Source of the DNA: Flavobacteriaceae bacterium | GTDB taxonomy: Bacteria > Bacteroidota > Bacteroidia > Flavobacteriales > Flavobacteriaceae | Direction of reading: 5' to 3' | DNA length: 64,000 bases | Assembly: GCA_002719315.1 (NCBI GenBank) | Contig: PBHD01000005.1 | Span: 155,133-219,132 of the forward strand | Shown here: piece after piece, positions 28,847-62,050 of the stretch | Position numbering within the stretch: the stretch's first letter is position 1 | How the letters are laid out: each line of letters begins with the position of its first letter | Made by a program: the position numbers and the translations under genes | The notes under the pieces: model-generated | Seen by the model: the letters and a program-made list of their open reading frames with translations, nothing else | What the model was told of the DNA's origin: nothing | The model's database searches: none

Positions 28847-28868
28847 TTAAGTACTTTTGGTACTTGAT
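28847..28868 (+). promoter_or_regulatory. Island motif copy 1 (contains a Bacteroidota-type -7 box)
   Basis: TTAAGTACTTTTGGTACTTGAT. TACTTTTG (28852-28859) fits TAnnTTTG. Direct repeat GTACTT-N3-GTACTT. It lies 25 nt upstream of the ATG at 28884. Confidence 0.6.
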
Positions 28869-28883
28869 ATAAGTTTAATTAAA

Positions 28884-29396
28884 ATGTTAGGTAAATTAAT
28901 TACTTCTAAAACCCGGTTGAGACTTTTATTAAAATTTTTTATTTCACAAGCCAACCGGGGTTATTTAAATGGTTTGGCAACTGAAATGGGAGAATCTTCT
29001 AATGCAATCAGAAAAGAACTTAATCACCTTTATGGAGCGGGGTATCTTCAAAAAATTAAATCAAATAATAAAGTTGAATATAAAGCTAATATAAAACATC
29101 CATTATTTGAAGTTCTTCAAAAAGTTGTATTTAAACATTTAGGTCTTGAAGATTTAGTTGAAACAGTATTAGATAGGATGGGTAATGTAAAACAAATTGT
29201 TTTAGTTGGAGATTATGCCAAAGGGAATGATTCAGGTAATATCGAAGTTTTTCTTATTGGAAAAAATTTGAATATGGAATATATAGCTCAATTGGAAGAA
29301 AAAATCGAAAAATTAATTAAAAGAAAAGTTAGCTTTTATTTGGCAACAAAAATTTTAAATGATCAACCTAATATTGTGCTTTATAATAATAATTAA
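28884..29396 (+). CDS. Winged-helix (ArsR-like) DNA-binding protein fused to a degenerate nucleotidyltransferase-like domain; first gene of the island
   Basis: N-terminal wHTH-like TRLRLLLKFF...GYLNGLATEMGESSNAIRKELNHLYGAGYL. C-terminal VLVGDYAKGNDSGNIEVFLIG resembles an MNT-type NTase core but lacks the DxD. Start moved from the TTG at 28857, which lies inside the motif, to the ATG at 28884. Confidence 0.65.
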   Translation: MLGKLITSKTRLRLLLKFFISQANRGYLNGLATEMGESSNAIRKELNHLYGAGYLQKIKSNNKVEYKANIKHPLFEVLQKVVFKHLGLEDLVETVLDRMGNVKQIVLVGDYAKGNDSGNIEVFLIGKNLNMEYIAQLEEKIEKLIKRKVSFYLATKILNDQPNIVLYNNN

Positions 29397-29398
29397 TA

Positions 29399-29749
29399 AT
29401 GATTTCAATTGAAAAAGAAGATCGTCCATGGGGAAGGTTTTTTGTTTTGCATGATGAACCTCAGTATAAAATAAAAAGAATTGAAGTAGAACCTGGGCAT
29501 AGGCTATCTTATCAATATCACAATTCTAGATCTGAAGTTTGGTCAATTGTTAGTGGCGAGGCAATAATAACAATTAATGGATTAGAAGGAGAGTATAATG
29601 TTGGAAAGGCAGTTATAATTCCTCAAGGAACAAAACATCGTATTCAAAATAATGGAAATGAAAAACTAATTTTTATTGAAGTTCAAACTGGAACTTATTT
29701 TGGTGAGGATGATATAGTAAGGATTGAAGATGATTATAATAGAACTTGA
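29399..29749 (+). CDS. Cupin-domain protein (mannose-6-phosphate isomerase type II C-terminal-domain-like)
   Basis: WGRFFVL...YKIKRIEVEPGHRLSYQYHNSRSEVWSIVSGEA is typical of the PMI/GMP cupin. Confidence 0.7.
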   Translation: MISIEKEDRPWGRFFVLHDEPQYKIKRIEVEPGHRLSYQYHNSRSEVWSIVSGEAIITINGLEGEYNVGKAVIIPQGTKHRIQNNGNEKLIFIEVQTGTYFGEDDIVRIEDDYNRT

Positions 29750-29750
29750 A

Positions 29751-30173
29751 ATGAAAAAAGTTATAATTGTATCAGGGTATTTTAATCCACTTCATAAAGG
29801 ACATATTGAATATTTTAAACTTTCTAAACAGAAAGGTGATTTACTTTTTGTTATTATTAATAATGATATTCAAAGGGAATTAAAAGGATCAAAAAAATTT
29901 ATGGACCAAGAAGAAAGATTATTAATTATTAGCGAATTGAAATTGGTTGATAAGGCATATTTATCTATTGATGAAGATAAATCTGTTTCAAAAACAATTG
30001 AAAAAATTTTTAAAGAATGTAATAAAAATCGAAAATTTTATTTTGCTAATGGTGGTGATCAGAGATTATTAAATATACCAGAAAGTGAAATTTGTCAAAA
30101 GTTGGGAATTGAATTAATTGATGGGTTAGGAGATAAAATCCAGTCTTCTTCTTGGATTTTGAAAAATTTGTAA
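29751..30173 (+). CDS. Small cytidylyl/adenylyltransferase (HxGH nucleotidyltransferase; TagD / RfaE-domain-II-like)
   Basis: The VSGYFNPLHKGHIEYF motif. Start moved to the ATG at 29751 (MKKVIIVSG). Confidence 0.7.
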   Translation: MKKVIIVSGYFNPLHKGHIEYFKLSKQKGDLLFVIINNDIQRELKGSKKFMDQEERLLIISELKLVDKAYLSIDEDKSVSKTIEKIFKECNKNRKFYFANGGDQRLLNIPESEICQKLGIELIDGLGDKIQSSSWILKNL

Positions 30174-30174
30174 A

Positions 30175-31593
30175 ATGGATATAAAAAGAATTTGTTGTAT
30201 TGGTGCTGGTTTTGTTGGTGGCCCAACAATGGCCGTAATTGCTCTTAATTGTCCTGAAATTGAAATTACAGTTGTAGACAATAATCCTGAAAGAATTTCA
30301 GCTTGGAATAATAAGAATTTGGATTTGTTGCCTGTTTATGAGCCAGGTCTAAAAGATATAATAAAAAAAGTTAGAGGTAAGAATTTATTTTTTTCTGACA
30401 AAATAGATGATGCAATCATTTCATCTCAAATGATTTTTATGGCAGTAAATACTCCAACAAAAATTAAGGGTAAAGGTAAAGGTATGGCTGCTGATTTGAC
30501 TTTTGTTGAAAAATGTGCATATCAAATTGGTAAAGTTTCTACAGATGATAAAATTATTGTTGAAAAATCAACTCTTCCAGTAAGAACAGCTGAAAGAATA
30601 AAAAAAATATTAGAATCATTTGATAAGCCTATTAATTTTGAAGTTATTTCAAATCCAGAATTTTTAGCTGAAGGAACCGCTATTAATGATTTATTTAAAT
30701 CTGATAGGGTTTTAATTGGAGGAGATTCAACAATTGAAGGGAAAAAAGCAGTCTCATCTCTAGTAAAAATTTATTCAAGATGGATTAAAAGAAATAGAAT
30801 TTTGTTAACCAATGTATGGTCATCTGAGTTAATTAAACTTGCATCAAATGCTATGTTAGCTCAAAGAATTTCATCAATAAATGCCCTCTCAGCTTTTTGT
30901 GAAAAAACTGGAGCTAATATAGAGGAAGTTTCAAAAGGTATTGGTCTAGATTCAAGAATAGGTCCAAAATTCTTAAAAGCTTCAGTTGGATTTGGAGGGA
31001 GTTGTTTTCAAAAGGATATTTTGAATTTAGTTTATTTATGTGAATATTATAATTTGAAAGAAGTTGCTGAATATTGGCATCAAGTTGTAAAAATAAATGA
31101 TTATCAAAAAAACAGATTTTCAAATAAAATAATAGAATCGTTTAATTATTCAATTAAAAACAAAATAATAACAATTTTGGGGTGGGCATTTAAAAAAGAC
31201 ACTAATGATTCTAGAGAATCTGCATCTATATATGTTACAGAAAAGTTATTAGGTGCAGGGGCTAAAATTAAAGTTTATGATCCAATGATTGATGAAAAAA
31301 GAGTTTATTCAGATTTGAGAATTTTTCTAGAATATAGAGGTTTGAGTTACAAAGAAATAGAATCAAAAATTTCAAGTGTAAGCGTTTATTCTGATTATAA
31401 GGCTGCTATTTCAAAAACTAATGCTATTGCTATACTTACTGAATGGGACGAGTTCAAATCATATAATTGGAAAAATTTGATAAAAAAAATGTCACTTCAA
31501 TATAAAATTTTTGATGGCCGGAATATAATTAATTCAGATGATGTAAACAGTAAAATTTATAAATTAGGAATTACTCAGTTTAAAAATATATGA
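30175..31593 (+). CDS. ugd: UDP-glucose 6-dehydrogenase, long animal-like type
   Basis: ICCIGAGFVGGP, NPEFLAEGTA and the catalytic Cys segment GFGGSCFQKDILNLVYLCE. It is collinear along its length with my recollection of animal UGDH. Confidence 0.85.
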   Translation: MDIKRICCIGAGFVGGPTMAVIALNCPEIEITVVDNNPERISAWNNKNLDLLPVYEPGLKDIIKKVRGKNLFFSDKIDDAIISSQMIFMAVNTPTKIKGKGKGMAADLTFVEKCAYQIGKVSTDDKIIVEKSTLPVRTAERIKKILESFDKPINFEVISNPEFLAEGTAINDLFKSDRVLIGGDSTIEGKKAVSSLVKIYSRWIKRNRILLTNVWSSELIKLASNAMLAQRISSINALSAFCEKTGANIEEVSKGIGLDSRIGPKFLKASVGFGGSCFQKDILNLVYLCEYYNLKEVAEYWHQVVKINDYQKNRFSNKIIESFNYSIKNKIITILGWAFKKDTNDSRESASIYVTEKLLGAGAKIKVYDPMIDEKRVYSDLRIFLEYRGLSYKEIESKISSVSVYSDYKAAISKTNAIAILTEWDEFKSYNWKNLIKKMSLQYKIFDGRNIINSDDVNSKIYKLGITQFKNI

Positions 31594-33335
31594 TTGTAAA
31601 TAAATTAAGACACATCGTTTCTAATAGGTATAATAATAAAATTTTTCTTTTAATTATTTTATTAATTATTGGAATGATTATAGAAGCTTTTGGACTAGGA
31701 ATAGTTATACCAGTACTTTCAACAATTCTTGAACCAAAAACCTTACTTGATTATGATTTTATATTTAATCTCTTTGAACTTATTAATATAAAGACAGATG
31801 TTGAAATAAGATTATTTATTTTGAGTTTCTTAATATCAATATATCTATTTAAAGCATTATTCTTAATATTCTTATCTTATTTTCAGTTCAAATTTTTAGG
31901 CAATTTATCTTATCATTTAACAAATAAGCTTTTTGGAATATATCTCCAACAACCATATAAATTTTATTTGAATAATAATTCGTCAGAATTAGTTAAAGAT
32001 ATTCAAGTTGAAATTACTTTGATGATTTCTTTTTTACAATCTGTAATTGCAATAGTAACTGAATCCTTTTTAGTATTATCCGTATTAATAACATTAATTT
32101 TTATTGAACCAACAGGGGCAATTTATATTATATTCTTTTTCTCATTCTTTTCAATAATTTATTTTCAATTAACAAGAAAAAAACTTTCAATTTGGGGAAA
32201 AGAAAGACAAGCTAAGGATAGTAAAATATATAGGACAGTTATGGAAAGTCTGTCAGGCATTAAATCTATTAAGGTTTTAGTAAAAGAGAATTTTTTTAAA
32301 AAAATTTTAATGAAATCTACTAGAGTAAAATACGATATATTTATTAAACAAAATACTGTCAATTTAATACCAAGACATTATTTAGAATTTTTAACAATTC
32401 TTGGATTATCATTATTAATATTAATTGTAATGAATAAGCATGAACAGCTTAATAATGTCATAATTTCAATAGGGGTGTGCTTAGCTGCGATTTTTAGAAT
32501 ACTACCGTCATTTAATAGAATAATTTCATCTATTCAAAATTTAAAGTTTCATGCCCCAAGTGTTGAGTCTGTTTACCAAGCATTTACTAAAAATGATTTA
32601 GTTAATAAAGATTATAATCTAAATGATAAAAAAATATTGGTTTTTAAAGAAAAAATATCACTAAAAAATATAAGTTTTTCATATGACAGATTTAATAATA
32701 TTTTAAATGATGCTAATTTTGAAATCAGAAAAGGAGAATCTATAGGAATTATCGGACAATCTGGTCAAGGTAAAAGTACTTTGGCGGATTTAATAACAGG
32801 TCTTTTAGAGCCAAATAAAGGGCAAATTAAAGTTGATGGAACTAATATGAAAAATTTAAACTTGATTTCATGGAAAAAAAACATTGGATATGTTCCACAA
32901 GAAATTTTTCTTATAGATGATAGTATAAAAAACAATATTGCTCTAGGGGTTTCTGATGATCAAATTTCTTTAAACAGGTTAAATAAAGCTATAAATAAAT
33001 CACAATTAATAAATTTTGTTAACTCTTTAAATAAAAAAATAGACACAAAAGTTGGAGAACGCGGTGTTCAATTATCTGGAGGGCAAAGACAAAGAATAGG
33101 AATAGCAAGGGCATTGTATAATGATCCGGAGATATTGATATTAGATGAAGCTACCAGTTCACTTGATGTTAAAACTGAAAAAGAGTTTATGAATGCAATA
33201 AACTTATTGAAAAGAGAAAAAACATTAATTATAATATCTCATAGATTTTCTACAATAAAAGATTGTGATAAAATTTATGAGATTAAAAATAAAACTTTAA
33301 AAAAAATAGATATAAATGAAAAACAATTGATTTAG
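31590..33335 (+). CDS. Fused TMD-NBD ABC exporter (MsbA/type I exporter-like)
   Basis: Six N-terminal TM helices. Walker A GQSGQGKST, signature LSGGQRQR, Walker B ILILDEATS. ATGA overlap with ugd. Confidence 0.85.
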   Translation: MIVNKLRHIVSNRYNNKIFLLIILLIIGMIIEAFGLGIVIPVLSTILEPKTLLDYDFIFNLFELINIKTDVEIRLFILSFLISIYLFKALFLIFLSYFQFKFLGNLSYHLTNKLFGIYLQQPYKFYLNNNSSELVKDIQVEITLMISFLQSVIAIVTESFLVLSVLITLIFIEPTGAIYIIFFFSFFSIIYFQLTRKKLSIWGKERQAKDSKIYRTVMESLSGIKSIKVLVKENFFKKILMKSTRVKYDIFIKQNTVNLIPRHYLEFLTILGLSLLILIVMNKHEQLNNVIISIGVCLAAIFRILPSFNRIISSIQNLKFHAPSVESVYQAFTKNDLVNKDYNLNDKKILVFKEKISLKNISFSYDRFNNILNDANFEIRKGESIGIIGQSGQGKSTLADLITGLLEPNKGQIKVDGTNMKNLNLISWKKNIGYVPQEIFLIDDSIKNNIALGVSDDQISLNRLNKAINKSQLINFVNSLNKKIDTKVGERGVQLSGGQRQRIGIARALYNDPEILILDEATSSLDVKTEKEFMNAINLLKREKTLIIISHRFSTIKDCDKIYEIKNKTLKKIDINEKQLI

Positions 33336-33336
33336 A

Positions 33337-33969
33337 ATGATTGTACAAATTTTAATTGATAACATAAATTCATGGATGATACCATATGCTAAAAGGTTTT
33401 TACCCGAAATAAATCATTTAGGCTATAAGACAAATTTAGTTTTCGACTCTAATCATGTTGTTAAAGGGAATGTTTTAATTCTATTATCCTGTGAAAAAAT
33501 TTTTAAGAAATTAAAATTAAATGATTTTAATATTGTTGTTCATGAGAGTAAACTTCCAAAAGGTAAAGGGTTTTCTCCTATGACATGGCAAGTTTTAGAA
33601 GGAAAAACAAGAATACCTATTTCTCTTTTTGAAGCAACAAAAAAAGTTGATTCTGGTAGAGTTTATTTTCAAGATTTTATAAAACTAGATGGTTTTGAAT
33701 TAATTGATGAAATAAGGGAAAAACAGGCTAATAAGACTAAAGAATTAATTTTAAATTTTTTAAAAAAAATTAATAATTTAAAAGTTATTCAAAAAAGAGG
33801 AGAAGAATCCTTTTACAGGAGAAGGACATCTAAAGACAGTATGTTAGATATAAATAAAACTATTAAAGAGCAATTTAATTTGCTAAGGGTTGTAGATAAT
33901 TTGAGATACCCAGCTTATTTTAAAATTGGAAAAAACAACTATAAAATTGAAATTACTAAAATGAATTAA
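33337..33969 (+). CDS. Formyltransferase-fold protein 1 (atypical active-site spacing)
   Basis: VVHESKLPKGKGFSPMTWQVLEG resembles the H-x-S-L-LP-x-x-RG formyltransferase segment. KKVDSGRVY supplies the downstream Asp. Confidence 0.6.
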   Translation: MIVQILIDNINSWMIPYAKRFLPEINHLGYKTNLVFDSNHVVKGNVLILLSCEKIFKKLKLNDFNIVVHESKLPKGKGFSPMTWQVLEGKTRIPISLFEATKKVDSGRVYFQDFIKLDGFELIDEIREKQANKTKELILNFLKKINNLKVIQKRGEESFYRRRTSKDSMLDINKTIKEQFNLLRVVDNLRYPAYFKIGKNNYKIEITKMN

Positions 33970-33988
33970 TTTTTATTATCTAAAAAAA

Positions 33989-35020
33989 ATGGAAAAGATT
34001 GAAACTAAATTTTCTTCAATATCTGATGAAAACCCTTGTTATATCATCGCCGAAATTGGAAGCAATCATAATGGAAATTTTGATTTAGCCTGTGAAATGA
34101 TTGAAAAAGCTTCAGAAGCAGGAGTTAATGCAGTAAAATTCCAGACATTTAAAGCTTCAAATCATTATTCAAAAAACACGAAAAAAATCAGTCTTTATGA
34201 AGAAGATATTTATTCTTTGATTGAAAAGTTAGAAATTAATAGATCTTGGCATAAAAAACTTTCAAAAGTTTGTTATCAAAAAAGGTTAGATTTTTTAGAT
34301 TCACCTTGCGATGACGAAGCAATAGATATAGCTATTAAAGTAGATATGCCTTTAATAAAAGTATCATCTTTTGATATGGTTGATGATAGATTAATTAGAA
34401 GAATTTCGAATACAGGAAGAGGTATTGTTTTTTCCTCAGGAATGGCTAATATGTCTGAAATTGAAAATGCAATAAATATTTCTAGATCTTGTAATAATCA
34501 TAAAATTGCAGTTTTACAGTGCACTTCTATTTATCCTGCTCCTTATTCAATAGTGAACTTAAATTCAATGGAAACAATTAAAAAAGCATTTAATGTAATA
34601 GTTGGGTATTCTGATCATACTCTTGGTGATCATATTTCTTGTGCAGCAGTTGCTATGGGAGCTAAAATAATTGAAAAACATTTTACATTAAACAGAGATT
34701 TTAAAGGGCCAGATCATAGTTTTGCTATTGAATATAATGAACTTAAAGATATGGTTAATAAAATAAGAGATATTGAAATAGGTATGGGAGATGGCATTAA
34801 AAATGGTCCAAGACATGAGGAAATGGAATTTTACAGAAATGCTAGAAGAAGTGTAATTGCGAAAAGAAATATAAAAAAAGGTCAAGTAATCAAAGACGAA
34901 GATTTAATTGTTAAAAGACCAAATTATGGTATACACCCAAAATTTTTATCAGTAATTATTGGAAGAAAAGCAAAGGTTGAAATAATTGAAGATGAACCTG
35001 TAACATGGGAAAAAATATAA
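33989..35020 (+). CDS. Nonulosonic acid synthase (NeuB/PseI/LegI family)
   Basis: The IIAEIGSNHNG motif, a TIM-barrel-length core and a C-terminal SAF-like segment RSVIAKRNIKKGQVIKDEDLIVKRP. Confidence 0.85.
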   Translation: MEKIETKFSSISDENPCYIIAEIGSNHNGNFDLACEMIEKASEAGVNAVKFQTFKASNHYSKNTKKISLYEEDIYSLIEKLEINRSWHKKLSKVCYQKRLDFLDSPCDDEAIDIAIKVDMPLIKVSSFDMVDDRLIRRISNTGRGIVFSSGMANMSEIENAINISRSCNNHKIAVLQCTSIYPAPYSIVNLNSMETIKKAFNVIVGYSDHTLGDHISCAAVAMGAKIIEKHFTLNRDFKGPDHSFAIEYNELKDMVNKIRDIEIGMGDGIKNGPRHEEMEFYRNARRSVIAKRNIKKGQVIKDEDLIVKRPNYGIHPKFLSVIIGRKAKVEIIEDEPVTWEKI

Positions 35021-35961
35021 AGAAGAAAATATTAATTTCAGGTTTAGGTGGTTCATTGTTTCCATTTTTACATAATATTTTAAAAATAAAATATGATTTA
35101 TTTTATGTTGACAACGATACTTTTTTAAAGGATTTATATAAAAATTTAAATCTTTATATATCTCCATTAGCTTCATCAAAAGATTACATTAAATTTATAA
35201 AGAAAATTATTTTAAAGCATAAAATAGATTTTTTTATTCCTTTAATTGATGAAGAAATTATTTCTGTAAAATCAGAGATAGAGGGATATAATGAATTGAA
35301 AATAATAAGTCCTGACTTAGACTTTTGTTTTTTAGCATTGAATAAGTATAGTTTGATGAAAACTCTAGAAAAAGAAAAAATTTCAATTATTAAATCATTT
35401 AAGGCAAATAATTTTAAATGGCAAATTACTCCTCCAATTTTTGTTAAACCTATAATTGGAAGAGGAAGTAGAGGGGTTAAAAAATTAAAAAATAATGAAT
35501 CTTTAAATGCTTATATAAATTTAAATTTTTTAGATCCTAAAGAGATACTTATTCAAGAATATTTATCTGGAATTGAATATACAATAGGAGTTACTGTAAA
35601 TAATTTAAATCATATTCTTTCTATTAGCATAAAAAGAATTATTCGAAAAAAAGGTATCACTATAATAGCTGTAACTGAAAAAAATCAGGAAATCTCAGAT
35701 TTAGTAAAAAAAGTAGTACAAAAATTAGCTCCAAAAGGCCCAATAAATATTCAGTTATTTAGGACAAAAAATAATGAATTTAAAATTTTTGAGATTAATC
35801 CAAGGTTTTCTACAACGACTATAATGAGTTATGCATGTGGTATAGATGAGATTAGTTTATATATAGATTTTTTTGACAAAAAATTTCAGGGAGAACCAAT
35901 ACAACCTAAAGAAGGAAAAATTCTTCATAGACGTTGGGAAAATATTTTTTATGAAAAATAA
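35005..35961 (+). CDS. ATP-grasp ligase
   Basis: Segments VKPIIGRGSRGV, LIQEYLSGIEYT and FEINPRFS. Confidence 0.75.
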   Translation: MGKNIKKKILISGLGGSLFPFLHNILKIKYDLFYVDNDTFLKDLYKNLNLYISPLASSKDYIKFIKKIILKHKIDFFIPLIDEEIISVKSEIEGYNELKIISPDLDFCFLALNKYSLMKTLEKEKISIIKSFKANNFKWQITPPIFVKPIIGRGSRGVKKLKNNESLNAYINLNFLDPKEILIQEYLSGIEYTIGVTVNNLNHILSISIKRIIRKKGITIIAVTEKNQEISDLVKKVVQKLAPKGPINIQLFRTKNNEFKIFEINPRFSTTTIMSYACGIDEISLYIDFFDKKFQGEPIQPKEGKILHRRWENIFYEK

Positions 35962-36847
35962 AATTTTATTAGTTGGAGGAACTGGATATATTGGTTCAGT
36001 ATTAAATAATTATTTGAAGGATAAATATCAAATTTATAGAACAAGTTTATCTAAATCAAATGAAAAAAAAGAATTTATAATTGATTTAAAAGTTTCAGAA
36101 TCATTTAATTCTCTAATCAATTATAAATTCGATATTGTTTTCTTTTTGGCTTCATCCATAAAAGGTATTGGAAAAAAAAACTTGAACAACATAGATTTAG
36201 AGATAAACACTATATGTTTAGCAAATTTTATTGATTTCTTAAAAAAGAATAAGTTGACAAAAAAAATAGTTTATATGTCATCAATGACTGTTTATGCACC
36301 TTCAAAAATTATTCCAGTTAATGAATTATTTGATTTATCTCCAACATCTATTTATGGTTTAAGTAAAAAAATAGCTGAAGAAATTATAAAATTTAATTCT
36401 TTAAATAGTAACATCAAATCCTTAGTTTTGAGAATTCCAGGTGTTTACGGAGGCAATAGAAAGAATGGACTTTTATACAAAGTAATAAAAAATGCTTTGC
36501 ATAATAATTCAATAAATATTAATACAGAAAATTTAGAATATTGGGAGTGTATAGAACTTAATGATTTATGTTTTTTATTAAAAAAATTATTAGGGGTGTA
36601 TAAATGGAATTCAAAATATGAAGAAATTAATATTGGCTATGGAGAAAAAATTGATTTGATAGATACTGTTCAGTTAATTCATAATAAAGTTAATAGTAAG
36701 GCTAAATTATATTTTAAAAATAAATCATATTCAGATTTTTATCTAGATGTTAAGAAGTTGAAAGATATTATAGATTATGATTTATCATTTAAAAATGGAT
36801 TATTTAGTTACATAAAACAAATTAAAAATGAGATTCGTGATAGGTGA
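35951..36847 (+). CDS. NAD-dependent sugar-nucleotide epimerase/dehydratase (extended SDR)
   Basis: LLVGGTGYIGS and the YxxxK segment YGLSKKIAE. Start moved to the ATG at 35951 (MKNKILLVGG). Confidence 0.75.
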   Translation: MKNKILLVGGTGYIGSVLNNYLKDKYQIYRTSLSKSNEKKEFIIDLKVSESFNSLINYKFDIVFFLASSIKGIGKKNLNNIDLEINTICLANFIDFLKKNKLTKKIVYMSSMTVYAPSKIIPVNELFDLSPTSIYGLSKKIAEEIIKFNSLNSNIKSLVLRIPGVYGGNRKNGLLYKVIKNALHNNSININTENLEYWECIELNDLCFLLKKLLGVYKWNSKYEEINIGYGEKIDLIDTVQLIHNKVNSKAKLYFKNKSYSDFYLDVKKLKDIIDYDLSFKNGLFSYIKQIKNEIRDR

Positions 36848-38262: not shown

Positions 38263-38264
38263 TT

Positions 38265-40521: not shown

Positions 40522-40534
40522 TTAAAGTAGAAAT

Positions 40535-43039: not shown

Positions 43040-43042
43040 ATT

Positions 43043-45015: not shown

Positions 45016-45053
45016 AAGACAAATTTTATAATTTATTATAAAAAATTAAGGTT

Positions 45054-46930: not shown

Positions 46931-46965
46931 ATTTTTTTTAAGTTTTTTTTAATTTTTATTATAAT

Positions 46966-46987: not shown

Positions 46988-47008
46988 TTTATATATCAAA
47001 TAAAACTT

Positions 47009-49056: not shown

Positions 49057-49086
49057 TTTTTAAAATTAATTAATAAATAAATTTTT

Positions 49087-49278
49087 ATGAATGATTTCGA
49101 AATAATTGATGAATTAGAAAAAGCAAGAGCAAAAAACAATATAAATTGGATGAATATTTTGCGCTTAGCTTTTAAAAACTCCCCTGAAGAAGCCAGAGAA
49201 ATAATCTTTAGGATAAACAAAAAAGATATTAAGATATCTAAAATATTAGAAAAATTATCGAAAAATAAAGGCGGGTAA
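49087..49278 (+). CDS. Small helical hypothetical protein (63 aa)
   Basis: Same strand as the operon and tightly spaced (stop 49278, next start 49283). I recognise no family. Confidence 0.4.
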   Translation: MNDFEIIDELEKARAKNNINWMNILRLAFKNSPEEAREIIFRINKKDIKISKILEKLSKNKGG

Positions 49279-49282
49279 TAAA

Positions 49283-50866: not shown

Positions 50867-50902
50867 AAAAAAATTATTTGACTATTTATTAGTTTTAGTA
50901 AT

Positions 50903-51865: not shown

Positions 51866-51895
51866 TTAATTTTTTGAACTATAAAACTTAACAAA

Positions 51896-53557: not shown

Positions 53558-53652
53558 TATAAACTGATAATTATTTAAAATGAAAAATTTATTTCGAATT
53601 AGTTGCTATAATTTTTTTAGGTATTTTATATTCAATAACAGAAATTAACAAT

Positions 53653-54705
53653 ATGAACATAAATGATTTAAAAAAAACTTTTTCTAATAATTCAAGGTTG
53701 AACAAAAAATTTGAATTTAAGGATATAGATAGTAAACATAAGAATATTATTAAAAATTCAAAAACTAATTTAGAAAATTTGAATTCTTCAAATTTTAGAA
53801 ATTGGGGCAGTCAAAATGATATGGGGTTAAAATATTCTATGACGTTTTTATCAAAAAATTTTTTAGAATTAAATAAAATCAGGCTTTTAAACAATTTTTT
53901 TAATTTTTTTAAAAAAAGACTGAATCATATTTTTGAGTATTCTTCAATGTTAGATGATATAGAAATATTAAAATTATTAGATGGTGAAAGTTTAATTAAA
54001 GAGAATCCTCAAAACAAAACTCCTGGATCAATTAATTATCCGCTTGTAAATGGTTACTCAGTTTCAATTAGATGGCTAAGGTATTTATATATACTAAATC
54101 AAATTATTAGATTTAATTTGATAAATAAAAATGATATTTGGCTAGATATAGGATCTTATTATGGCGGATTGCAAGGTTTAGTAAAAAAATATTTTCCTAA
54201 AACTAAAATAATTATGTTGGATTTTAGCCATCAATTACTTAGGAGTTTTATTTATTTAAAAAAATTATATCCAAATGCTAATCATATTTTTCCCAATCAA
54301 TCACAAAAAATCAAGGATATAAAAAATATTCCTGACGGATCATTTGTTTATGTTGAGGTAGAGGATACAAATACTTTAAATAATTTTGATATTAAAATAG
54401 TTACAAACTTCTTTAGTTTGGGAGAAATGAAAAAAAAATCATTTGATAATTATTTAAATTCTGAATTTATGAAAAATGCTAAAACTATATATTTTGCCAA
54501 TAGATTTAATAGTAGTCCATTTTTTGAAAAAACATATGATGACTCAATAAATATATTTGATTATAAGCTCAATAAAGAAATTTTTTATTTTGATATTTTT
54601 CCAATGGGTCATTACCAAATAACAAATAGAAAAATTTTAAACAGGACTTTTTTTAGAAACATTTCTAGTCAGTATTTTGAAATAATTTGGAAAGAAAAAA
54701 TTTAG
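53653..54705 (+). CDS. Putative sugar O-methyltransferase (class I SAM fold)
   Basis: Motif I-like WLDIGSYYGGLQGLV, then IIMLDFS. Confidence 0.55.
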   Translation: MNINDLKKTFSNNSRLNKKFEFKDIDSKHKNIIKNSKTNLENLNSSNFRNWGSQNDMGLKYSMTFLSKNFLELNKIRLLNNFFNFFKKRLNHIFEYSSMLDDIEILKLLDGESLIKENPQNKTPGSINYPLVNGYSVSIRWLRYLYILNQIIRFNLINKNDIWLDIGSYYGGLQGLVKKYFPKTKIIMLDFSHQLLRSFIYLKKLYPNANHIFPNQSQKIKDIKNIPDGSFVYVEVEDTNTLNNFDIKIVTNFFSLGEMKKKSFDNYLNSEFMKNAKTIYFANRFNSSPFFEKTYDDSINIFDYKLNKEIFYFDIFPMGHYQITNRKILNRTFFRNISSQYFEIIWKEKI

Positions 54706-54927
54706 TTTTAAAAGAAAATAAAAAAATGAATTCTATTAACTGAAATATTAATTAATTGTTTAAAGATTATATAAATAAATATATGAGTTGTTTTTTGGAA
54801 ATTAAAATTATTGTTAATTAAGAATTCCTTCATTAAATAAATGAAAGATCAATATAATCTTAATAGAATTTAATAAATTGAAAATATATATTTTAGAAAA
54901 AAGTTTTAACAATTTAATCATTAGTTT

Positions 54928-55794
54928 ATGAAAATAGAAATAGGTTATGGTAAAATAGAAAAAGTAAAAATCGGAGATGATTTACCATTAGCTTTTGTTG
55001 GTGGACCATGTGCTATTGAAAGTAGAGACCATGCTTTTTTTATGGCAGACAAGATTAATAAAATATGTAATAAACTAAAAATGCCATGGATTTATAAGTC
55101 ATGCTATGATAAAGATTGCCGTTCATCACCAAAAAGTTTTCATGGAGTAGGAATTGATGAAGGTTTGAAGATATTGTCCGAGATAAGAGATTCATTTGGA
55201 ATACCTGTCGTTTCAGATTTTTCAGATTCATCATGGGCCCAATCTACAGGAGAAGTATGTGATATGGTTCAAGTTCCAGCTTATTTGTGTAGGCAAACCT
55301 CAATTTTAAGAGCTGCAGCTGAAACAAGTCGTCCAATATTATTAAAAAAAGGACAGTTTATGAGTCCATGGAATATGAAAAATTCATGTAGAAAGATTGA
55401 ATCTTTTGGAAATAATAAAATTATTTTAGCAGAAAGAGGAACCTTTTTTGGGTATAATATGCTTGTAAATGACATGAAATCCTTTCCAATAATGGCTGAA
55501 ACTGGATATCCAGTTTGTTATGATGCATCTCATTCTATTCAATTGCCAACATCTATGGGTAATATTTCAGGCGGACAAAGAGAATATATTCCATATTTAG
55601 TTAGGGCTGCAGTTGCTAACGGAATAAATTTATTATTTATTGAGACTCATGACAACCCTAATGAAGCATTATCTGACTCTAATACAGTCTTGGATATAAA
55701 ATATCTTAAAAATGTATTATATCAATCTAAAGTAATTCATGAAACTAGATTAAGATTATTAAATGAATTAGGGTCTGATAATATTATTCATTGA
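54928..55794 (+). CDS. kdsA: KDO8P-synthase family enzyme (metal-dependent class) with a divergent substrate-selectivity motif
   Basis: Collinear with KdsA: GGPCAIES (Cys as in the metal-dependent class), QVPAYLCRQT, DASHSIQ, LFIETHDNP. The canonical KANRS motif reads KDCRS (55111-55125). Confidence 0.8.
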   Translation: MKIEIGYGKIEKVKIGDDLPLAFVGGPCAIESRDHAFFMADKINKICNKLKMPWIYKSCYDKDCRSSPKSFHGVGIDEGLKILSEIRDSFGIPVVSDFSDSSWAQSTGEVCDMVQVPAYLCRQTSILRAAAETSRPILLKKGQFMSPWNMKNSCRKIESFGNNKIILAERGTFFGYNMLVNDMKSFPIMAETGYPVCYDASHSIQLPTSMGNISGGQREYIPYLVRAAVANGINLLFIETHDNPNEALSDSNTVLDIKYLKNVLYQSKVIHETRLRLLNELGSDNIIH

Positions 55795-55808
55795 TAAAAA
55801 ATTAAAAT

Positions 55809-56198
55809 ATGAAAGTAAAAGATGTAATGCTTAAAAAAGGAAAATTTCCAATATTAACACCTAAAACTTTATTAAAAGAAGCTTTAGTTGAAATGGTTAA
55901 GACAAAGCTTGGTTTAGTTTGTATAACCGATTTAAATAACAAGTTAATAGGCATATTTACTGATGGGGATATTAGAAGAATGTTATTAAAAAATCAAAAG
56001 CCATTTTCAGCTTTTTTTGTAGATGATATAATTGATCATGCAAATTTAGATCCTACAACTTGTAAAGATTCTGATTCTTTGAAAGAATCATTAAAATTGA
56101 TGGAAGAAAAGGGAATTTGGGATTTGCCAGTATTGGATGAGGAAAATAATTTAATAGGACTTTTTCATTTGCATCAAGCAATATCAAAGTTGATATAG
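55809..56198 (+). CDS. Stand-alone CBS-pair protein (resembles the C-terminal half of KpsF/KdsD)
   Basis: 129 aa with two CBS repeats (LVCITDLNNKLIGIFTDGDIRR and WDLPVLDEENNLIGLFHLHQ). No SIS domain is present in this ORF or next to it. Confidence 0.75.
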   Translation: MKVKDVMLKKGKFPILTPKTLLKEALVEMVKTKLGLVCITDLNNKLIGIFTDGDIRRMLLKNQKPFSAFFVDDIIDHANLDPTTCKDSDSLKESLKLMEEKGIWDLPVLDEENNLIGLFHLHQAISKLI

Positions 56199-56215
56199 TT
56201 ATTAGATTAATTTAA

Positions 56216-57049
56216 ATGAAAAAACTTAATAAAAATTATTTAGGGTGGAATTCAAAAGATCATTTAATTTCCTTCAATTTTTGGAATGATTTATCTAATT
56301 ATGAGTTTAATTTTAGGTGGGGAAGTTTTAGGGAAAATCAAATTATTTCGGAAGTTTTAAAAAAAGGAGATTCATTGTTTGAAGTTGGATGTGCAACTGG
56401 AACTACAGTTAGGTGGCTAAAAAATACTGGAATTTTAAGTAAAATTAAATATTTAGGAGTTGACATTAGTGATACAGCAATTAGTAAAGCAAATTTCTTA
56501 CACCCTAAAGTTAATTTTAAAAAGATTGGTTTAGGACCTTTAAAAGAGTATTATAATAAATTTGATTATGTTTTCAGTAGAGATACAATTATGCATCAAG
56601 AAAAACCTTTTGAATTTTTATGGGAACTTATTAAATGTGCTAATAAAGGACTAATAATAAGATTAAGAACTAGAGATTCAGGAATCACAAATTATAATTT
56701 AGAAAGTAATTGTCAACTCCATTATGATAATTATTGGATGCCATATATAGTGATTAATATAAGTGAAATAATAGATTTTTTAAAAAGTTTAAAAATTATT
56801 TATAGTATAGAGATTAATCGTTCCTATGAAGTTTTAGGAGGAAGTACAAATAGATATTTACCGAAAGATTTATATTTTAAATCAGCAGGAGGGGCTGAAA
56901 CTTCAATTTTTTTAAAAATTGATAAAACAAAAACCTCGAATGATATTGAAATTATTAAAACAGATCTTGTTGAAGGAAGAAAACTTATAAGATTTTCTAT
57001 TTTTAAAAGATTTATTATAGCTGTTCTAAAAAAATTAAAACTATTATAA
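56216..57049 (+). CDS. Class I SAM-dependent methyltransferase
   Basis: Motif I LFEVGCATGTT. Confidence 0.65.
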   Translation: MKKLNKNYLGWNSKDHLISFNFWNDLSNYEFNFRWGSFRENQIISEVLKKGDSLFEVGCATGTTVRWLKNTGILSKIKYLGVDISDTAISKANFLHPKVNFKKIGLGPLKEYYNKFDYVFSRDTIMHQEKPFEFLWELIKCANKGLIIRLRTRDSGITNYNLESNCQLHYDNYWMPYIVINISEIIDFLKSLKIIYSIEINRSYEVLGGSTNRYLPKDLYFKSAGGAETSIFLKIDKTKTSNDIEIIKTDLVEGRKLIRFSIFKRFIIAVLKKLKLL

Positions 57050-57823
57050 ATGAAAAGAAAAGATTTAAAAAAAGCATTAAGGTTAAGAAAAAAAATTTTT
57101 GGAGCATGGGTTTCTTATTCAGAACCTTCAATTGCTGAAACTTTTGCTAAAGCTAATTTTGATTTTTTAGTAATAGATATGGAACATTCTACAATAACAT
57201 TACCTCAGTCAAAAAATATTATATCCGTTTGCCAATCTATGGGAGTCTCATGTTTGCCAAGGCCTGTTTCTCATTCTAATGATTATTTTAAACCATTATT
57301 AGAATTTGGACCTGACGGTCTTTTTGTTCAAATGGTTAATAATCCTTCTGAGTTGAATAAAATTATTAATTATGTAAAATATCCTCCAATTGGTTGCAGG
57401 AGTTATGGAATTAATAGAGCTCAAGAATATGGTTTTAAAATTGAAGAATATTTTTCTTTATGGAATGATGAATCTTCTTTAATAATTCAAATTGAATCAA
57501 TTGAAGGGGTTAAGAATATTGAATCTCTACTAGATAATGATCAAGTAGATGCCGTTATGATAGGGCCTTATGACATTTCTGGTTCACTTGGTGTCCCGGG
57601 AGAAATTAATCATCCAAAAGTAATTGAAGCTTCAAAAAAAGTAATTTCCGCTTGTGAAAAGTATGGAAAGAGTTGTGGAACTCAAATTTCTGATCCCAAT
57701 CAAGAAAATATTAAATCTTTATTTGATATGGGTTACACCTACTTGATTCTTGGATCTGATTTATTTGTTTTGTGGAGATGGGCTGAAAAGATGAGTAAAC
57801 TTATTAATAGAATCAAAGATTAA
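57050..57823 (+). CDS. HpcH/HpaI-family class II (pyruvate-dependent) aldolase
   Basis: Segments FDFLVIDMEHS, IQIESIEGVKNIESL and IGPYDISGSLG. Confidence 0.8.
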   Translation: MKRKDLKKALRLRKKIFGAWVSYSEPSIAETFAKANFDFLVIDMEHSTITLPQSKNIISVCQSMGVSCLPRPVSHSNDYFKPLLEFGPDGLFVQMVNNPSELNKIINYVKYPPIGCRSYGINRAQEYGFKIEEYFSLWNDESSLIIQIESIEGVKNIESLLDNDQVDAVMIGPYDISGSLGVPGEINHPKVIEASKKVISACEKYGKSCGTQISDPNQENIKSLFDMGYTYLILGSDLFVLWRWAEKMSKLINRIKD

Positions 57824-57827
57824 AAAA

Positions 57828-58604
57828 ATGTATTTAAATAAATTATTTAATTTAAAAGGAAAAGTTGCTGCTGTTATAGGAGGGGGAGGATATTTATGTA
57901 GTAAAATGTCAATGGGCCTGGCTAAATCAGGATGTAAATTGGCGATTTTAGATCTAAGATTAAAAAAAGCAAAAAAAGTTTGTAATGAAATTATATTTGA
58001 GGGATATAATGAGACAATTGCATTATCAATAGATGTATCAAATAAAGAAAGTCATGAAAGTGCTTTAAATTATATCGTTAAAAAATTTGGGAGAGTTGAT
58101 ATATTAATAAATGGTGCAGGAATTAATAGCTCATCTCCATTTTTGGAAATTGATAGTAATGAATGGTATTCTATAATCGATTCTCAGTTAACAGGAACTT
58201 TTTATGGATGTCAAGTATTTGGAAAGCATATGTTGAAAAATAATTCTGGGTCGATAATTAATGTTTCTTCAGCATCTGCTGGACCACCTCTTTCAAAAGC
58301 ATTTACATATTCAGTTTCAAAGGCAGGTATAAAAAACTTAACCCAAAATTTGGGTAGAGAATGGGGAGAAAAAGGTGTTAGGGTTAATGCTATTAGACCT
58401 GGATTTTTCCCAACTGAATGGAATAAAAAAAACTTTATTACAAAGGATAGAGAAAAAAAAATATTAGGACATACTCCAATGAATAGATATGGTAAACCTG
58501 ATGAATTAATAGGTGCAATTTTATGGTTATCTTCTGAAGCTTCCAGTTTTGTTACAGGTGCTGAAATTACTGTGGATGGGGGTTATTCTTGCATGACAAT
58601 TTAA
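57828..58604 (+). CDS. Classical SDR oxidoreductase
   Basis: Segments AVIGGGGYLCS, NGAG and YSVSKAGIKNL. Confidence 0.8.
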   Translation: MYLNKLFNLKGKVAAVIGGGGYLCSKMSMGLAKSGCKLAILDLRLKKAKKVCNEIIFEGYNETIALSIDVSNKESHESALNYIVKKFGRVDILINGAGINSSSPFLEIDSNEWYSIIDSQLTGTFYGCQVFGKHMLKNNSGSIINVSSASAGPPLSKAFTYSVSKAGIKNLTQNLGREWGEKGVRVNAIRPGFFPTEWNKKNFITKDREKKILGHTPMNRYGKPDELIGAILWLSSEASSFVTGAEITVDGGYSCMTI

Positions 58605-58610
58605 ATAAAA

Positions 58611-59372
58611 ATGAAAAATAAAAAGACAGTTATAATTACTGGTGGAAATAGAGGAATAGGTTTGGGAATAACAAAAGTTTTCCTTAGAAATAATTATAAT
58701 GTATTTGTTGGTTCTAGAACAGGATTTTCAAAAGAAAGTCATAACTTAAACATAAAATCTGTAAATCATTTCAAAATAGATGTTAGGAATTTTAATGATC
58801 ACGTCAAACTTGCAAAAAAAGCAATTGAATTAACAGGTAGACTAGACTCTTATATTAATAATGCAGGATATTCAAAATGGGTTTCTATAAATAATATTGA
58901 AGAAAAATTTTTAAATAATATTTTGGAAACTAATTTAAAAGGTGTTTTTTGGGGTTGTAAAGCTGCAGCAAAATTTTTAAATTCTGAAAATCCCTCAATT
59001 ATAAATGTCTCAAGTTTAGCAGGTAAAAGAGGGAGTTTAAATAATTCTGCTTATGTAGCTTCAAAATTTGGTGTTAATGGACTTACTCAGTCTTTAGCTA
59101 AAGAATTAGGTGAAAAAAATATAAGAGTAAATGCAGTTTGCCCAGTACTCATTGCAACTAAAGGATTAATTAAAGCTTTAGAGGAAGAAGAAGCTCCAGG
59201 AAAAAAAGGAGCAATTAAGTTTATTGAAGAGTTTTCAAGAATTAATTCTCCATTAAATAGAATGCCAACATCTGAAGAAGTTGGAGAAATGTGTTTATAT
59301 CTTGCTAGTGATAAGGCTAAAGCAATAACCGGTCAATGTATTAATGTAGATTGTGGAGTTTTACCTCAATAA
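58611..59372 (+). CDS. Classical SDR oxidoreductase (FabG-like)
   Basis: Segments ITGGNRGIGLG, NNAG and YVASKFGVNGL. Confidence 0.8.
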   Translation: MKNKKTVIITGGNRGIGLGITKVFLRNNYNVFVGSRTGFSKESHNLNIKSVNHFKIDVRNFNDHVKLAKKAIELTGRLDSYINNAGYSKWVSINNIEEKFLNNILETNLKGVFWGCKAAAKFLNSENPSIINVSSLAGKRGSLNNSAYVASKFGVNGLTQSLAKELGEKNIRVNAVCPVLIATKGLIKALEEEEAPGKKGAIKFIEEFSRINSPLNRMPTSEEVGEMCLYLASDKAKAITGQCINVDCGVLPQ

Positions 59373-59373
59373 A

Positions 59374-60141
59374 ATGAATTTAAAAGTAATAATTCCTGCT
59401 CACTTAGCCTCTTTGAGATTAAAAGAAAAAATTTTAATTGACATTCACGGTTTACCCATGATTGAACATGTAAGAAGAAGAGTTTTATTATCAAAAGAAG
59501 TTAGTGAAGTAATTGTTGCAACTTGCGATTTTGAAATAAAAAAAACTGTTGAGGGTTTTGGAGGAAAAGTAGTAATGACTTCCAATGATCATCAGAATGG
59601 TACTAGTAGAGTTGCTGAGGCAGTAAGTAAAATAAAATGTTCACATGTATTAATAGTTCAAGGAGATGAACCTTTGATTCATCCAGAACATATTAATCTA
59701 ATGGTTAAATCAATGCTAAATAATAATAAAATAAAAATTTGGAACGGAATAACTTCAATTAATTCTATTGATGATTTAAATAATCGTGACCTAGTAAAAT
59801 GTTTTGTCAATAGTAAAAATCAAATTGGAATGTGTTTCAGAAATAACCCAGGTTTTTCTGGCTTAAAAAAATTGAATAAGTCAATATTTAAAATACAGGG
59901 TTTAATAGCATTTAAAAAAAATTTTCTAATGAATTTAGTAAATAAACCCCCATCACCATATGAATTAGCTGAGTCAATTGAACAAATGAGATCTATTGAA
60001 AATGGAAATCAAATTCAAGCAGTTATGTTAAATAAGTCTTTTTCTTCTATAAATAATTTAGAAGAATTAAAAGAAGTTCGCAATATTTTAAAAAAAAGTA
60101 AATTAGAAATAGAAATTTTAAATACTATTAAGCATAATTAA
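59374..60141 (+). CDS. kdsB: CMP-Kdo synthetase family cytidylyltransferase (KdsB-like, divergent N-terminal loop)
   Basis: Segments VIIPAHLASLRLKEKILIDIHGLPMIEHV, GTSRVAEA, VQGDEPL and ESIEQMR. Start moved to the ATG at 59374. Confidence 0.75.
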   Translation: MNLKVIIPAHLASLRLKEKILIDIHGLPMIEHVRRRVLLSKEVSEVIVATCDFEIKKTVEGFGGKVVMTSNDHQNGTSRVAEAVSKIKCSHVLIVQGDEPLIHPEHINLMVKSMLNNNKIKIWNGITSINSIDDLNNRDLVKCFVNSKNQIGMCFRNNPGFSGLKKLNKSIFKIQGLIAFKKNFLMNLVNKPPSPYELAESIEQMRSIENGNQIQAVMLNKSFSSINNLEELKEVRNILKKSKLEIEILNTIKHN

Positions 60142-60142
60142 T

Positions 60143-61105
60143 TTATTTAAAAAAATTTCTTATTCTTCGGTAGTTTAATTTTGCCAATAAAATTCTTTCA
60201 GAATTAAAAGATTCATCAATAGGAAACCTATGAAAGATTAATGATTTATTTTCAAAATTTAAAGGGTTAGCAGTGAAAATCGCTTTAGCTCCATTTTTGA
60301 TTAAGATTTTATTTGTTTTACTATTGTAGCAAGTATTTTTTTGGCCATATGGATAACTAAAATAATCTATAAAATTTTTTAAGAAAGTCATCCTGTTTTT
60401 ATTGTAGTTTTTTATTAAATCAATTTCATTTAACAAACTAGCATTAAAATGATTATATAAATGATTTCCTATGCAAAATAATTTATTTTTTGAAATTTTT
60501 TCAAGATCATTTAATGTTCCAAATTCTCCATAATATTTTTTAGCTGCATTAATTATTTTTATTTTATTATGTGTTCTAAAAAATTTTTCAACGTGCATAG
60601 GAAGGGCATATAAAAATTCTTTATTTTTTATATGTAAATGGTCTTCAGGGTTGACTATTTTTTTAAAATAACTATAATTTTTACACAAAAAATTTACTAA
60701 TCCTGACCAAAAAATTTCTTTTTTAAAAGGAGCATAATTTAAAAAAAATATTGATGGACACTTTTTCTCCTCTAAAATTCTGGTGGCATTTTTAAATATT
60801 CCTATTGAACCATCATCAAAAGTAATTAGAGCAGTTGGGATTTTTAATTTAGTAATATTTAATTCTTTTGGATGGATTACTTTAAAATTATTCATTATAA
60901 TTTCTATTTGTTTCTTAAATAAATTAGGTTTAATATTTAAATTATTTTCAGAGTAAAATTTAGAAGGATTATAAGAAATTTCATGAAACAAAAAAACTAC
61001 TAATTTTTTATTGAAAAGGATCTTAAATAATTTTTGAGAACCAAAAATACTTAACATAAATTTAGAAAGAAAAAATGATTTTAAGATTTTTTTAAGTTTT
61101 TCCAT
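60143..61105 (-). CDS. Polysaccharide deacetylase (NodB/CE4-like)
   Basis: The ALITFDDGSIGIF motif and the downstream IGNHLYNH. Confidence 0.65.
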   Translation of the reverse strand: MEKLKKILKSFFLSKFMLSIFGSQKLFKILFNKKLVVFLFHEISYNPSKFYSENNLNIKPNLFKKQIEIIMNNFKVIHPKELNITKLKIPTALITFDDGSIGIFKNATRILEEKKCPSIFFLNYAPFKKEIFWSGLVNFLCKNYSYFKKIVNPEDHLHIKNKEFLYALPMHVEKFFRTHNKIKIINAAKKYYGEFGTLNDLEKISKNKLFCIGNHLYNHFNASLLNEIDLIKNYNKNRMTFLKNFIDYFSYPYGQKNTCYNSKTNKILIKNGAKAIFTANPLNFENKSLIFHRFPIDESFNSERILLAKLNYRRIRNFFK

Positions 61106-61875
61106 GCTTTAAATATAAGTTTAGGATTTTCTTTCATATATCTTGATGTATATACTTTTCCTTGCTTTAAATTTTGTTTTTCCAATTTGAGTATTTTATT
61201 TCTAGTTATTGTCCTATGAGTTTTAATAAATCCATTTAAACCAAGTAAAGTTAATTTTAAACCTATAGAATAGAAATTATCTTTAAAGTCAATTTCAGGT
61301 TTAAATCGATAAATTAAATCTCCAGAATCAATCTTATCGTCTATTAAATGAACTGTTACACCTAATCCTTTTTTTCCTTTTGTAGCAAGAGCAGATATTA
61401 TTCCTTCTCCTCTAAATTCTGGAGACCAACCCCAATGCATATTTATGAAAAAAGCATTTTTTAAAGACAAAATATTTGTTTTTATAATACTAGTTCCAAA
61501 AACATAAATTAATTTGTAGTTATTTTTTTTTAGTATTTCAAATGTTTTTTGATCATTTATATTTTCTATTTCATATAATATTATTTCTTTTTGAAGTTCA
61601 TTGTAATTCTTAATTAATATCCTGTTGTTGTGATATTGTTGTTTACCAAAATATTTGTCAAAAAAAATTTTATTTAAAACTTTAATTAAAAAATTTTTTG
61701 TCAAACTAAACTCTTTATTTAAAGTTTTTATTAATTCAAAAATATTTTTTTTTCTCGGGAAGGAAGATTTACCTCCTTCAAATACTACGGCATCAATTAT
61801 TCCTTTTTTATACAAATAATTTGCTGCATATACTTGAAAAGATGATCTTTTAGTTAGTAATATTCCTTTACTCAT
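61081..61875 (-). CDS. Formyltransferase-fold protein 3
   Basis: Segments INMHWGWSPEFRGEG and VHLIDDKIDSGDLI. Confidence 0.6.
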   Translation of the reverse strand: MSKGILLTKRSSFQVYAANYLYKKGIIDAVVFEGGKSSFPRKKNIFELIKTLNKEFSLTKNFLIKVLNKIFFDKYFGKQQYHNNRILIKNYNELQKEIILYEIENINDQKTFEILKKNNYKLIYVFGTSIIKTNILSLKNAFFINMHWGWSPEFRGEGIISALATKGKKGLGVTVHLIDDKIDSGDLIYRFKPEIDFKDNFYSIGLKLTLLGLNGFIKTHRTITRNKILKLEKQNLKQGKVYTSRYMKENPKLIFKAWKNLKKS

Positions 61876-62028
61876 TAAATTAGAATGATTTAAAAATATT
61901 TTGAAACAAATCTAAGGATTCTATTAGGTTTACTCATAATTATTTATCTATTATATTTATCTAGATTAAATACATTTGTATTCTATTTAAACTTTATCAA
62001 TTTATATATAATTGTTTTTTAACACATT

Positions 62029-62050
62029 TTAAGTACTTTTGTTACTTATT
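62029..62050 (+). promoter_or_regulatory. Island motif copy 3 (contains a -7 box)
   Basis: TTAAGTACTTTTGTTACTTATT, with TACTTTTG at 62034-62041. It lies in the 240-nt divergent gap, 75 nt upstream of the ATG at 62116. Confidence 0.55.

Follow-up and report, generated by a model that had tools for sequence, protein, structure and literature searches.

The 64,000-nt stretch of Flavobacteriaceae bacterium DNA analysed here (contig PBHD01000005.1, positions 155,133 to 219,132, referred to throughout as the window) contains three exact copies of a 19-nt motif, TTAAGTACTTTTG(G/T)TACTT, or TTAAGTACTTTTGKTACTT with K standing for G or T. All three are on the + strand. We read the motif as a glycan-locus promoter whose palindrome is the predicted operator of a 170-aa winged helix-turn-helix (wHTH) protein encoded at 28884-29396, and on the sequence evidence we give this reading a probability of about 0.55. 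The parts of the reading differ in strength: each copy very likely forms the core of a Bacteroidota sigma-A-type promoter, and the chance that the palindrome is bound by the predicted partner, the wHTH protein, is about even.

A search of the window at up to three mismatches yielded seven matches, as compared to a mean of 0.29 and a maximum of 2 in dinucleotide-shuffled sequence. The original prediction, made by reading the sequence alone, had given the copies as 22-nt spans sharing a 19-nt core with one G/T position; the core is exact in all three, and the longer spans take in three bases that are not conserved. An additional T directly 5′ of the core is common to the three copies, so that 20 nt are conserved altogether. 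When the copies were aligned with 60 nt on either side, similarity ended at the motif borders, and because the identity is confined to the motif we take the copies to be discrete elements rather than remnants of a duplicated segment. Each lies in an intergenic gap upstream of + strand genes (28802-28883, 46931-47008 and 61876-62115), as first reported. The same search recovered the 15/17 degenerate copy proposed ahead of copy 1 and found no match at ≤3 mismatches in the first 28.8 kb of the window, which agrees with the earlier observation that the motif is absent there. Copy 3 is unchanged in the near-identical contigs L170-L173. Three more matches, each with 3 mismatches, are on the − strand within coding sequence (38072-38090, 39332-39350 and 61036-61054); those at 38072 and 61036 keep an intact TAnnTTTG box. 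Against a chance expectation of 0.29, three additional matches is an excess; internal or antisense promoters or base composition could account for them, although they are probably due to chance.

The −7 box of the putative promoter, TACTTTTG, occupies motif positions 6-13 and is an exact TAnnTTTG, the Bacteroidota sigma-A sequence, in all three copies, as had been noted. A TTG of the −33 element stands at the 19-20 nt spacing in 42 of 51 unique related sites, with at most 2 at control spacings, which supports a promoter. Mapped promoters of Flavobacterium psychrophilum have the −7 box at −12 to −5 (PMC9723704), and this rule places the start of transcription at about motif position 18 (predicted starts near 28864, 46983 and 62046). 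The predicted 5′ leaders would be ~20, 26 and 70 nt for copies 1, 2 and 3, and the motif would extend from about −17 to +2 and so be mostly untranscribed. With starts at about position 18, the listed open reading frame (ORF) starts at 28857 and 46976 lie upstream of the predicted transcripts. Both had been suspected to be artefactual N-terminal extensions, and the homologues bear this out, beginning MLGxLITSKTR at the ATG that corresponds to 28884; the Rossmann motif of the RmlD-like product, MKKLIIIGASG, begins at the TTG at 47009.

The same anatomy allows a rather unlikely alternative, that the motif is a promoter and nothing else, with the AAG and GTACT flanks acting as RNA polymerase/sigma-A contacts (an extended −7 element plus discriminator) that set strength or growth-rate response without a dedicated binder. 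The −33/−7 consensus and spacing are near perfect, and F. psychrophilum is reported to have sigma-A motif sub-classes that differ subtly (PMC9723704). A strict screen of the window for a −33 TTG, a TAnnTTTG box and a downstream gene starting with ATG was passed by copies 1 and 3 only, also in keeping with a plain promoter; copy 2 failed because it has no −33 TTG and its gene starts with TTG. The motif, however, departs from the Bacteroidota consensus (TTG-19 nt-TAnnTTTG), which it matches exactly at −7 in the three copies and at −33 in copies 1 and 3 and most related sites, in holding eleven further positions fixed, among them the two 'nn' of the box, the AAG upstream and the GTACT downstream. 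These fixed positions are not a feature of ordinary promoters in the same genomes. We compared 113 further non-coding TAnnTTTG boxes that precede genes in the same loci, and found the AAG flank at 9 and the G/TTAC flank at 5; the flanks are thus rare, and the motif is not the local generic promoter consensus, the outcome that the original prediction had named as fatal to it. Polymerase contacts also leave unexplained why the flanks and half the box form a 6-5-6 palindrome, and why a second copy, at a constant distance of 44 bp, has retained both half-sites while lacking the G that the box requires.

The palindrome, the inverted repeat AAGTAC-N5-GTACTT, runs from about −15 to +2 across the −7 box and the predicted start site. 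With G at position K, as in copy 1, the repeat is perfect; with T, as in copies 2 and 3, it is 5/6. The direct repeat GTACTT-N3-KTACTT described originally is real; identical bases also form the inverted repeat, which was overlooked, and they can be read either way because AAGTACTT is self-complementary. The degenerate second copy, which had been remarked on as a tandem arrangement at the locus head, is found exactly 44 bp upstream in the window and in eight further loci of the same layout (nine in all) and 23 bp upstream in 2, and among the loci sharing the 44-bp offset the sequence between the two copies has diverged. Position K is G in 59 and T in 23 of the head copies and G in 1 and T in 6 of the secondary copies (Fisher p = 0.004, for sites that are related and not independent), a bias that would fit a hierarchy of predicted affinities at head and secondary copies.

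The degenerate copy also takes part in an imperfect inverted repeat (28805-28823 / 28887-28905) that surrounds copy 1 and the start codon, and its complementarity to wHTH codons 2-8 (TTAGGTAAATTAATTACTT) is 84%. The segment 28887-28905 may be a third weak site, or its likeness may be a coincidence of the conserved N-terminus. This flanking repeat, the position of the copies at module boundaries of a variable island, and the apparent two-gene insertion that copy 3 accompanies would suit a recombination or switch site, either the repeat of an invertible promoter as in Bacteroides capsule loci or a junction for exchange of glycan cassettes. We consider this extremely improbable. More than 100 independent metagenomic and genomic instances have a single orientation relative to the downstream genes, the three copies share no flanking inverted repeat, the start codon lies between the arms of the repeat around copy 1, so that inversion there would destroy the gene, and family scans found no recombinase among the island genes.

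The gene after copy 1 was originally described as encoding a wHTH protein, and structure prediction agrees. No family was assigned to the 170-aa product by Pfam or NCBIfam; Pfam at E ≤ 1 gave weak HTH matches only and no UpxZ. An AlphaFold2 model built on a 30-sequence alignment has a predicted local distance difference test score (pLDDT) of 89. In Foldseek its N-terminal half matches the ArsR/SmtB repressors AntR (6uvu, E = 1.8e-4), HlyU, SqrR, NolR and BigR, and its C-terminal half matches the MNT nucleotidyltransferase antitoxin. A sequence-profile search of the PDB gave weak matches (2oqg) consistent with the ArsR-like fold. We identified more than 5,000 homologues, which form 402 clusters at 50% identity (E ≤ 1e-10), and the helix-turn-helix residues E37, S38, N40, R43, E45, L46 and N47 are invariant among members down to 50% identity. 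The exact 19-mer is still found upstream of homologues that have diverged to 53-60% protein identity; motif conservation was assessed for homologues down to ~53% identity, since those at 35-45% were not traceable to DNA.

We searched one genome per species, 185,579 species in total, for the exact 19-mer and obtained 89 matches in three classes. About 37 lie in AT-rich intergenic DNA of uncultured marine Flavobacteriales, to which the intergenic matches are essentially confined. The matches in Firmicutes (Bacilli, Staphylococcus, Enterococcus, Clostridium) were set aside as unrelated, as they fall in a conserved stretch of protein-coding appearance, most substitutions there being at every third base; those in Winogradskyella and Lacinutrix fall in a different conserved stretch, likewise coding-looking by third-base variation, and were also rejected. 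A check for stop-free frames did not flag most of the matches in either class as coding.

A homologue of the 28884-29396 protein lies within 1 kb downstream of 30/30 assessable locus-head sites, accompanied in 12 of them by a paralogue of the elongation factor NusG, which strengthens the proposed link between motif and wHTH gene. Downstream of the secondary exact sites are a NeuB operon, an ABC exporter, a capsule-type gene and, at one site, a GAPDH-like gene. As a sample unbiased with respect to the motif, 80 metagenomic loci (600,392 nt) were fetched through the wHTH protein; they contain 60 matches at ≤2 mismatches, 60/60 of which are on the gene strand and non-coding, as compared to 0 in the reversed sequence and 0-1 in Markov controls. 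The exact scan and the 600 kb of related loci thus agree on the restriction to glycan loci, for which a genome-wide search had been suggested as the test.

The related loci fall into two main layouts. In layout A, to which the window belongs, 5-30 nt separate the motif from the wHTH start codon downstream. The majority have layout B, in which the motif is followed by a leader of 85-150 nt with a hairpin and T-run, then by a NusG paralogue (153-157 aa, Pfam NusG E = 2.4e-13) and then by the wHTH gene. This paralogue and wHTH pair of the relatives was missed originally; the window has neither the paralogue nor the leader terminator, and a tblastn search of its 64 kb with a related NusG paralogue gave nothing significant. 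Rearranged orders also occur: L053 (3123-4128) and L071 (2646-3655) have two tandem motifs 23 bp apart, then wHTH, then the NusG paralogue, and L050 (3031-4085) has the order NusG paralogue, motif, wHTH. The motif remains beside the wHTH gene in all three.

Several features of the layout-B leaders and spacers recur. The leader of L108 (9322-9431) and its equivalents in ~50 related loci have a conserved CATTTGATAAAA followed by the hairpin and T-run; the stem sequence varies by locus and the hairpin is present in all of them. It looks like a terminator that the NusG paralogue could read through. Between NusG paralogue and wHTH gene, L108 (~9905-10000) and most layout-B loci have a spacer with TAccTTTG and then CCCAATTGGGACAGAtgcGGCGGAGCCgtc; this element has no Rfam match, and no such site occurs in the window. 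Its GGCGGAGCC core recalls the enterobacterial ops sequence GGCGGTAG. In L073 and L077 the leader after the motif begins ATGTTAGGTAATTTAATAATCC, upstream of the NusG paralogue, which from its sequence looks like a truncated remnant of the wHTH start-codon region.

The position of the motif 85-150 nt upstream of a NusG paralogue in most related loci, with a terminator-like hairpin in the leader, raises the alternative that it is a loading site for this paralogue, comparable to ops/JUMPstart with RfaH or opsX with UpxY, the palindrome folding, within a paused complex, into a hairpin of either the non-template strand or the RNA. Hairpins that form in the non-template strand of leaders are recognised by UpxY (PMC11685472), and the G variant of the motif folds as a 6-bp hairpin of −3.6 kcal/mol. 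We nevertheless regard such a role as improbable. The motif holds a −7 box with a correctly spaced −33 and would therefore lie nearly all upstream of the start, untranscribed, and the 64-kb window has no NusG paralogue. The T variant (−0.9 kcal/mol) and the degenerate copy (0 kcal/mol) barely fold, and the stem positions are invariant, with no compensatory changes. Furthermore, 12 of the 30 assessable motif-anchored heads have a paralogue, and in ~19 the motif and the wHTH gene occur with no paralogue detected in the 8-kb locus.

Under the operator reading, the wHTH protein, probably as a dimer, would read AAGTAC-N5-GTACTT and thereby control its own operon and two further units through one type of operator. 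With the operator lying over the −7 box and predicted start site, repression through occlusion of the promoter would be the favoured mode; relief could come from a ligand of the MNT-like domain, and the conserved second site at −51 would allow cooperative binding.

A number of points weigh against this. Most relatives have the motif ahead of the NusG paralogue and a different element ahead of the wHTH gene; given that gene order, the association may be with the locus head as a whole and not with the wHTH protein. The extra conserved bases could be RNA polymerase contacts, and copy 2 has TTTA in place of a −33 TTG at the expected position. The genome scan covered the exact motif, and regulon members with variant motifs may exist outside glycan loci. 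The related sequences are not independent, so that fewer evolutionary events lie behind them than the counts suggest. Binding by the wHTH protein, the start sites, the sign of regulation and any ligand are all predicted from the DNA.

The closest mechanistic analogue is a repressor of the ArsR type whose own promoter is overlaid by an inverted-repeat operator. The predicted N-terminal fold is that of ArsR/SmtB repressors such as AntR, HlyU, SqrR, BigR and NolR, an operator-like inverted repeat covers the −7 box and start, and the gene directly downstream of the putative operator gives an autoregulatory layout. In contrast to these repressors, the 170-aa protein matches no family model and ends in an MNT-like domain; we identified no site for sensing metal or sulfide in the protein, and its predicted target is glycan biosynthesis and not metal or sulfide stress.

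The enterobacterial JUMPstart/ops-RfaH system is similar in having a short conserved sequence just upstream of many polysaccharide clusters, a dedicated regulator, and a position at the start of long glycan operons. The ops sequence GGCGGTAGnnTG is part of the transcribed leader, where the NusG paralogue RfaH reads it on the non-template DNA. The window motif, by comparison, is unrelated in sequence, contains a −7 box and, judging from the consensus, would lie mostly upstream of the start, and the cognate NusG paralogue that most related loci possess is absent from the window. The only ops-like GGCGGAGCC in the window is one chance match with 1 mismatch at 16054.

Capsule loci of Bacteroides, in the same phylum, are likewise glycan loci headed by small regulatory genes, with UpxY (a NusG paralogue), UpxZ and opsX (PMC11685472), and the order in most of our relatives (promoter, leader hairpin, NusG paralogue, ~170-aa protein, glycan genes) mirrors upxY-upxZ. 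The ~170-aa protein is not UpxZ by sequence, and is predicted to combine an ArsR-like winged helix with an MNT fold. Bacteroides loci begin with upxY, whereas the first gene in the window is the wHTH gene; the window version has lost, or never had, the NusG paralogue seen in most relatives. Unlike the Bacteroides capsule switch, there is no inversion here, the orientation being single with no shared flanking inverted repeat, and unlike the Bacteroides leader pause site the conserved element is the promoter itself, common to loci and species and not locus-specific.

More broadly, and tentatively, a module may be common to the hypervariable surface-glycan islands of marine Flavobacteriales: a promoter-embedded palindromic operator with a two-domain regulator, its winged helix on DNA and its MNT-like fold sensing a nucleotide or nucleotide-sugar, layered in most lineages on NusG-paralogue antitermination with a leader terminator and the ops-like GGCGGAGCC. 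The window would represent the module at its simplest, with nothing but the operator to coordinate three operons. No part of marine flavobacterial genomes varies more than the surface-glycan islands, which shape phage susceptibility, grazing and particle attachment; to our knowledge nothing is known of their control in the uncultured marine lineages. The searchable literature gave us no account of the motif, of the protein family or of a flavobacterial UpxY/NusG-paralogue circuit, and a full-text search for AGTACTTTTG returned unrelated primer sequences only. An invariant, searchable motif marks island heads in fragmentary metagenomic data and defines a testable regulon. It also directs attention to an unstudied family of regulators, with ~400 clusters at 50% identity, and to how this family and antitermination by NusG paralogues interact outside Bacteroides, and it would supply a compact native promoter for Flavobacteriia genetic tools.

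The features of the window are listed in Table 1.

Table 1. Motif copies, promoter elements and transcription units in the window (coordinates in window positions; TSS, transcription start site; SDR, short-chain dehydrogenase/reductase).
Feature	Position	Strand	Description
Degenerate copy, AAGTACTTTTTTTACCT	28805-28821	+	15/17 match; 44 bp upstream of copy 1; both half-sites kept, G of −7 box replaced by T
−33 element TTTG, promoter 1	28828-28831	+	20 nt upstream of −7 box
Copy 1, TTAAGTACTTTTGGTACTT	28847-28865	+	K = G; inverted repeat AAGTAC/GTACTT perfect; −7 box 28852-28859; predicted TSS ~28864
170-aa wHTH protein gene	28884-29396	+	Candidate motif-binding regulator; predicted ArsR-like winged helix and MNT-like nucleotidyltransferase fold (AlphaFold2, Foldseek)
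Transcription unit 1	29399-46930	+	Pfam: cupin, cytidylyltransferase, UDP-Glc dehydrogenase, ABC exporter, NeuB, ATP-grasp, DegT, HisH/HisF-like, formyltransferases, methyltransferase, CMP-sugar synthetase
Copy 2, TTAAGTACTTTTGTTACTT	46966-46984	+	K = T; −7 box 46971-46978; predicted TSS ~46983
Transcription unit 2	47009-60141	+	RmlD-like (start TTG 47009), PseC/DegT aminotransferase, four family-less proteins, KDO8P-synthase-like, CBS, methyltransferase, aldolase, two SDRs, CMP-KDO-synthetase-like
Antisense pair	60143-61875	−	Polysaccharide deacetylase-like and formyltransferase; between units 2 and 3
−33 TTG, promoter 3	62012-62014	+	19 nt upstream of −7 box
Copy 3, TTAAGTACTTTTGTTACTT	62029-62047	+	K = T; −7 box 62034-62041; predicted TSS ~62046
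Transcription unit 3, start	62116-64000	+	GSCFA protein, then 550-aa protein

The window has a G+C content of ~26%, and from 28.9 kb to its end Pfam identifies a co-directional glycan-biosynthesis island. Its genes encode NeuB, two DegT/PseC aminotransferases, two CMP-sugar synthetase-like proteins, formyltransferases, an ATP-grasp protein, a HisH/HisF-like pair, an ABC exporter, a KDO8P-synthase-like protein, SDRs and GSCFA. Related contigs extend unit 3 beyond the window: L170 is 100% identical to window 52116-64000 in the overlap, and L172 is 99.98% identical to 58875-64000 and continues for a further 10 kb. The continuation encodes a 2OG-Fe oxygenase, glycosyltransferases and UDP-sugar epimerases/dehydratases, and no further motif occurs in it on L170 or L172. 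In four related islands (L174-L177; GSCFA 56-60% identical) the antisense pair is absent, GSCFA directly abuts co-directional genes, and no motif at ≤3 mismatches is present within 10 kb on either side of GSCFA. From this comparison the antisense pair looks like an insertion that split an operon, and copy 3 would sit where a promoter is needed, after the antisense genes that interrupt it.

Rfam at gathering thresholds found nothing in the window or in three related loci. Unit 2 contains an unlisted small ORF of ~63 codons (MNDFEIIDELEKARAKNNINWMNILR...) at 49088-49279 (+), which fills an apparent gap of 227 nt after the PseC-like gene. The four consecutive proteins that follow (527, 320, 553 and 350 aa; 49283-54705) have no Pfam family at E ≤ 0.1, and at least the first three have counterparts of the same size and in the same order in the related island L177. 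The next gap, 223 nt of AT-rich sequence at 54706-54927 before the KDO8P-synthase-like gene, contains no motif and no clear TAnnTTTG box.

Upstream of the island are genes for two paralogous ~770-aa Wzy_C (O-antigen ligase-like) + TPR proteins, at 22752-25064 and 26477-28801 (+), and between them is a WecA-like transferase gene at 25472-26410 (−). A WecA-like gene is also the divergent neighbour of the motif-headed NeuB operon in L039.

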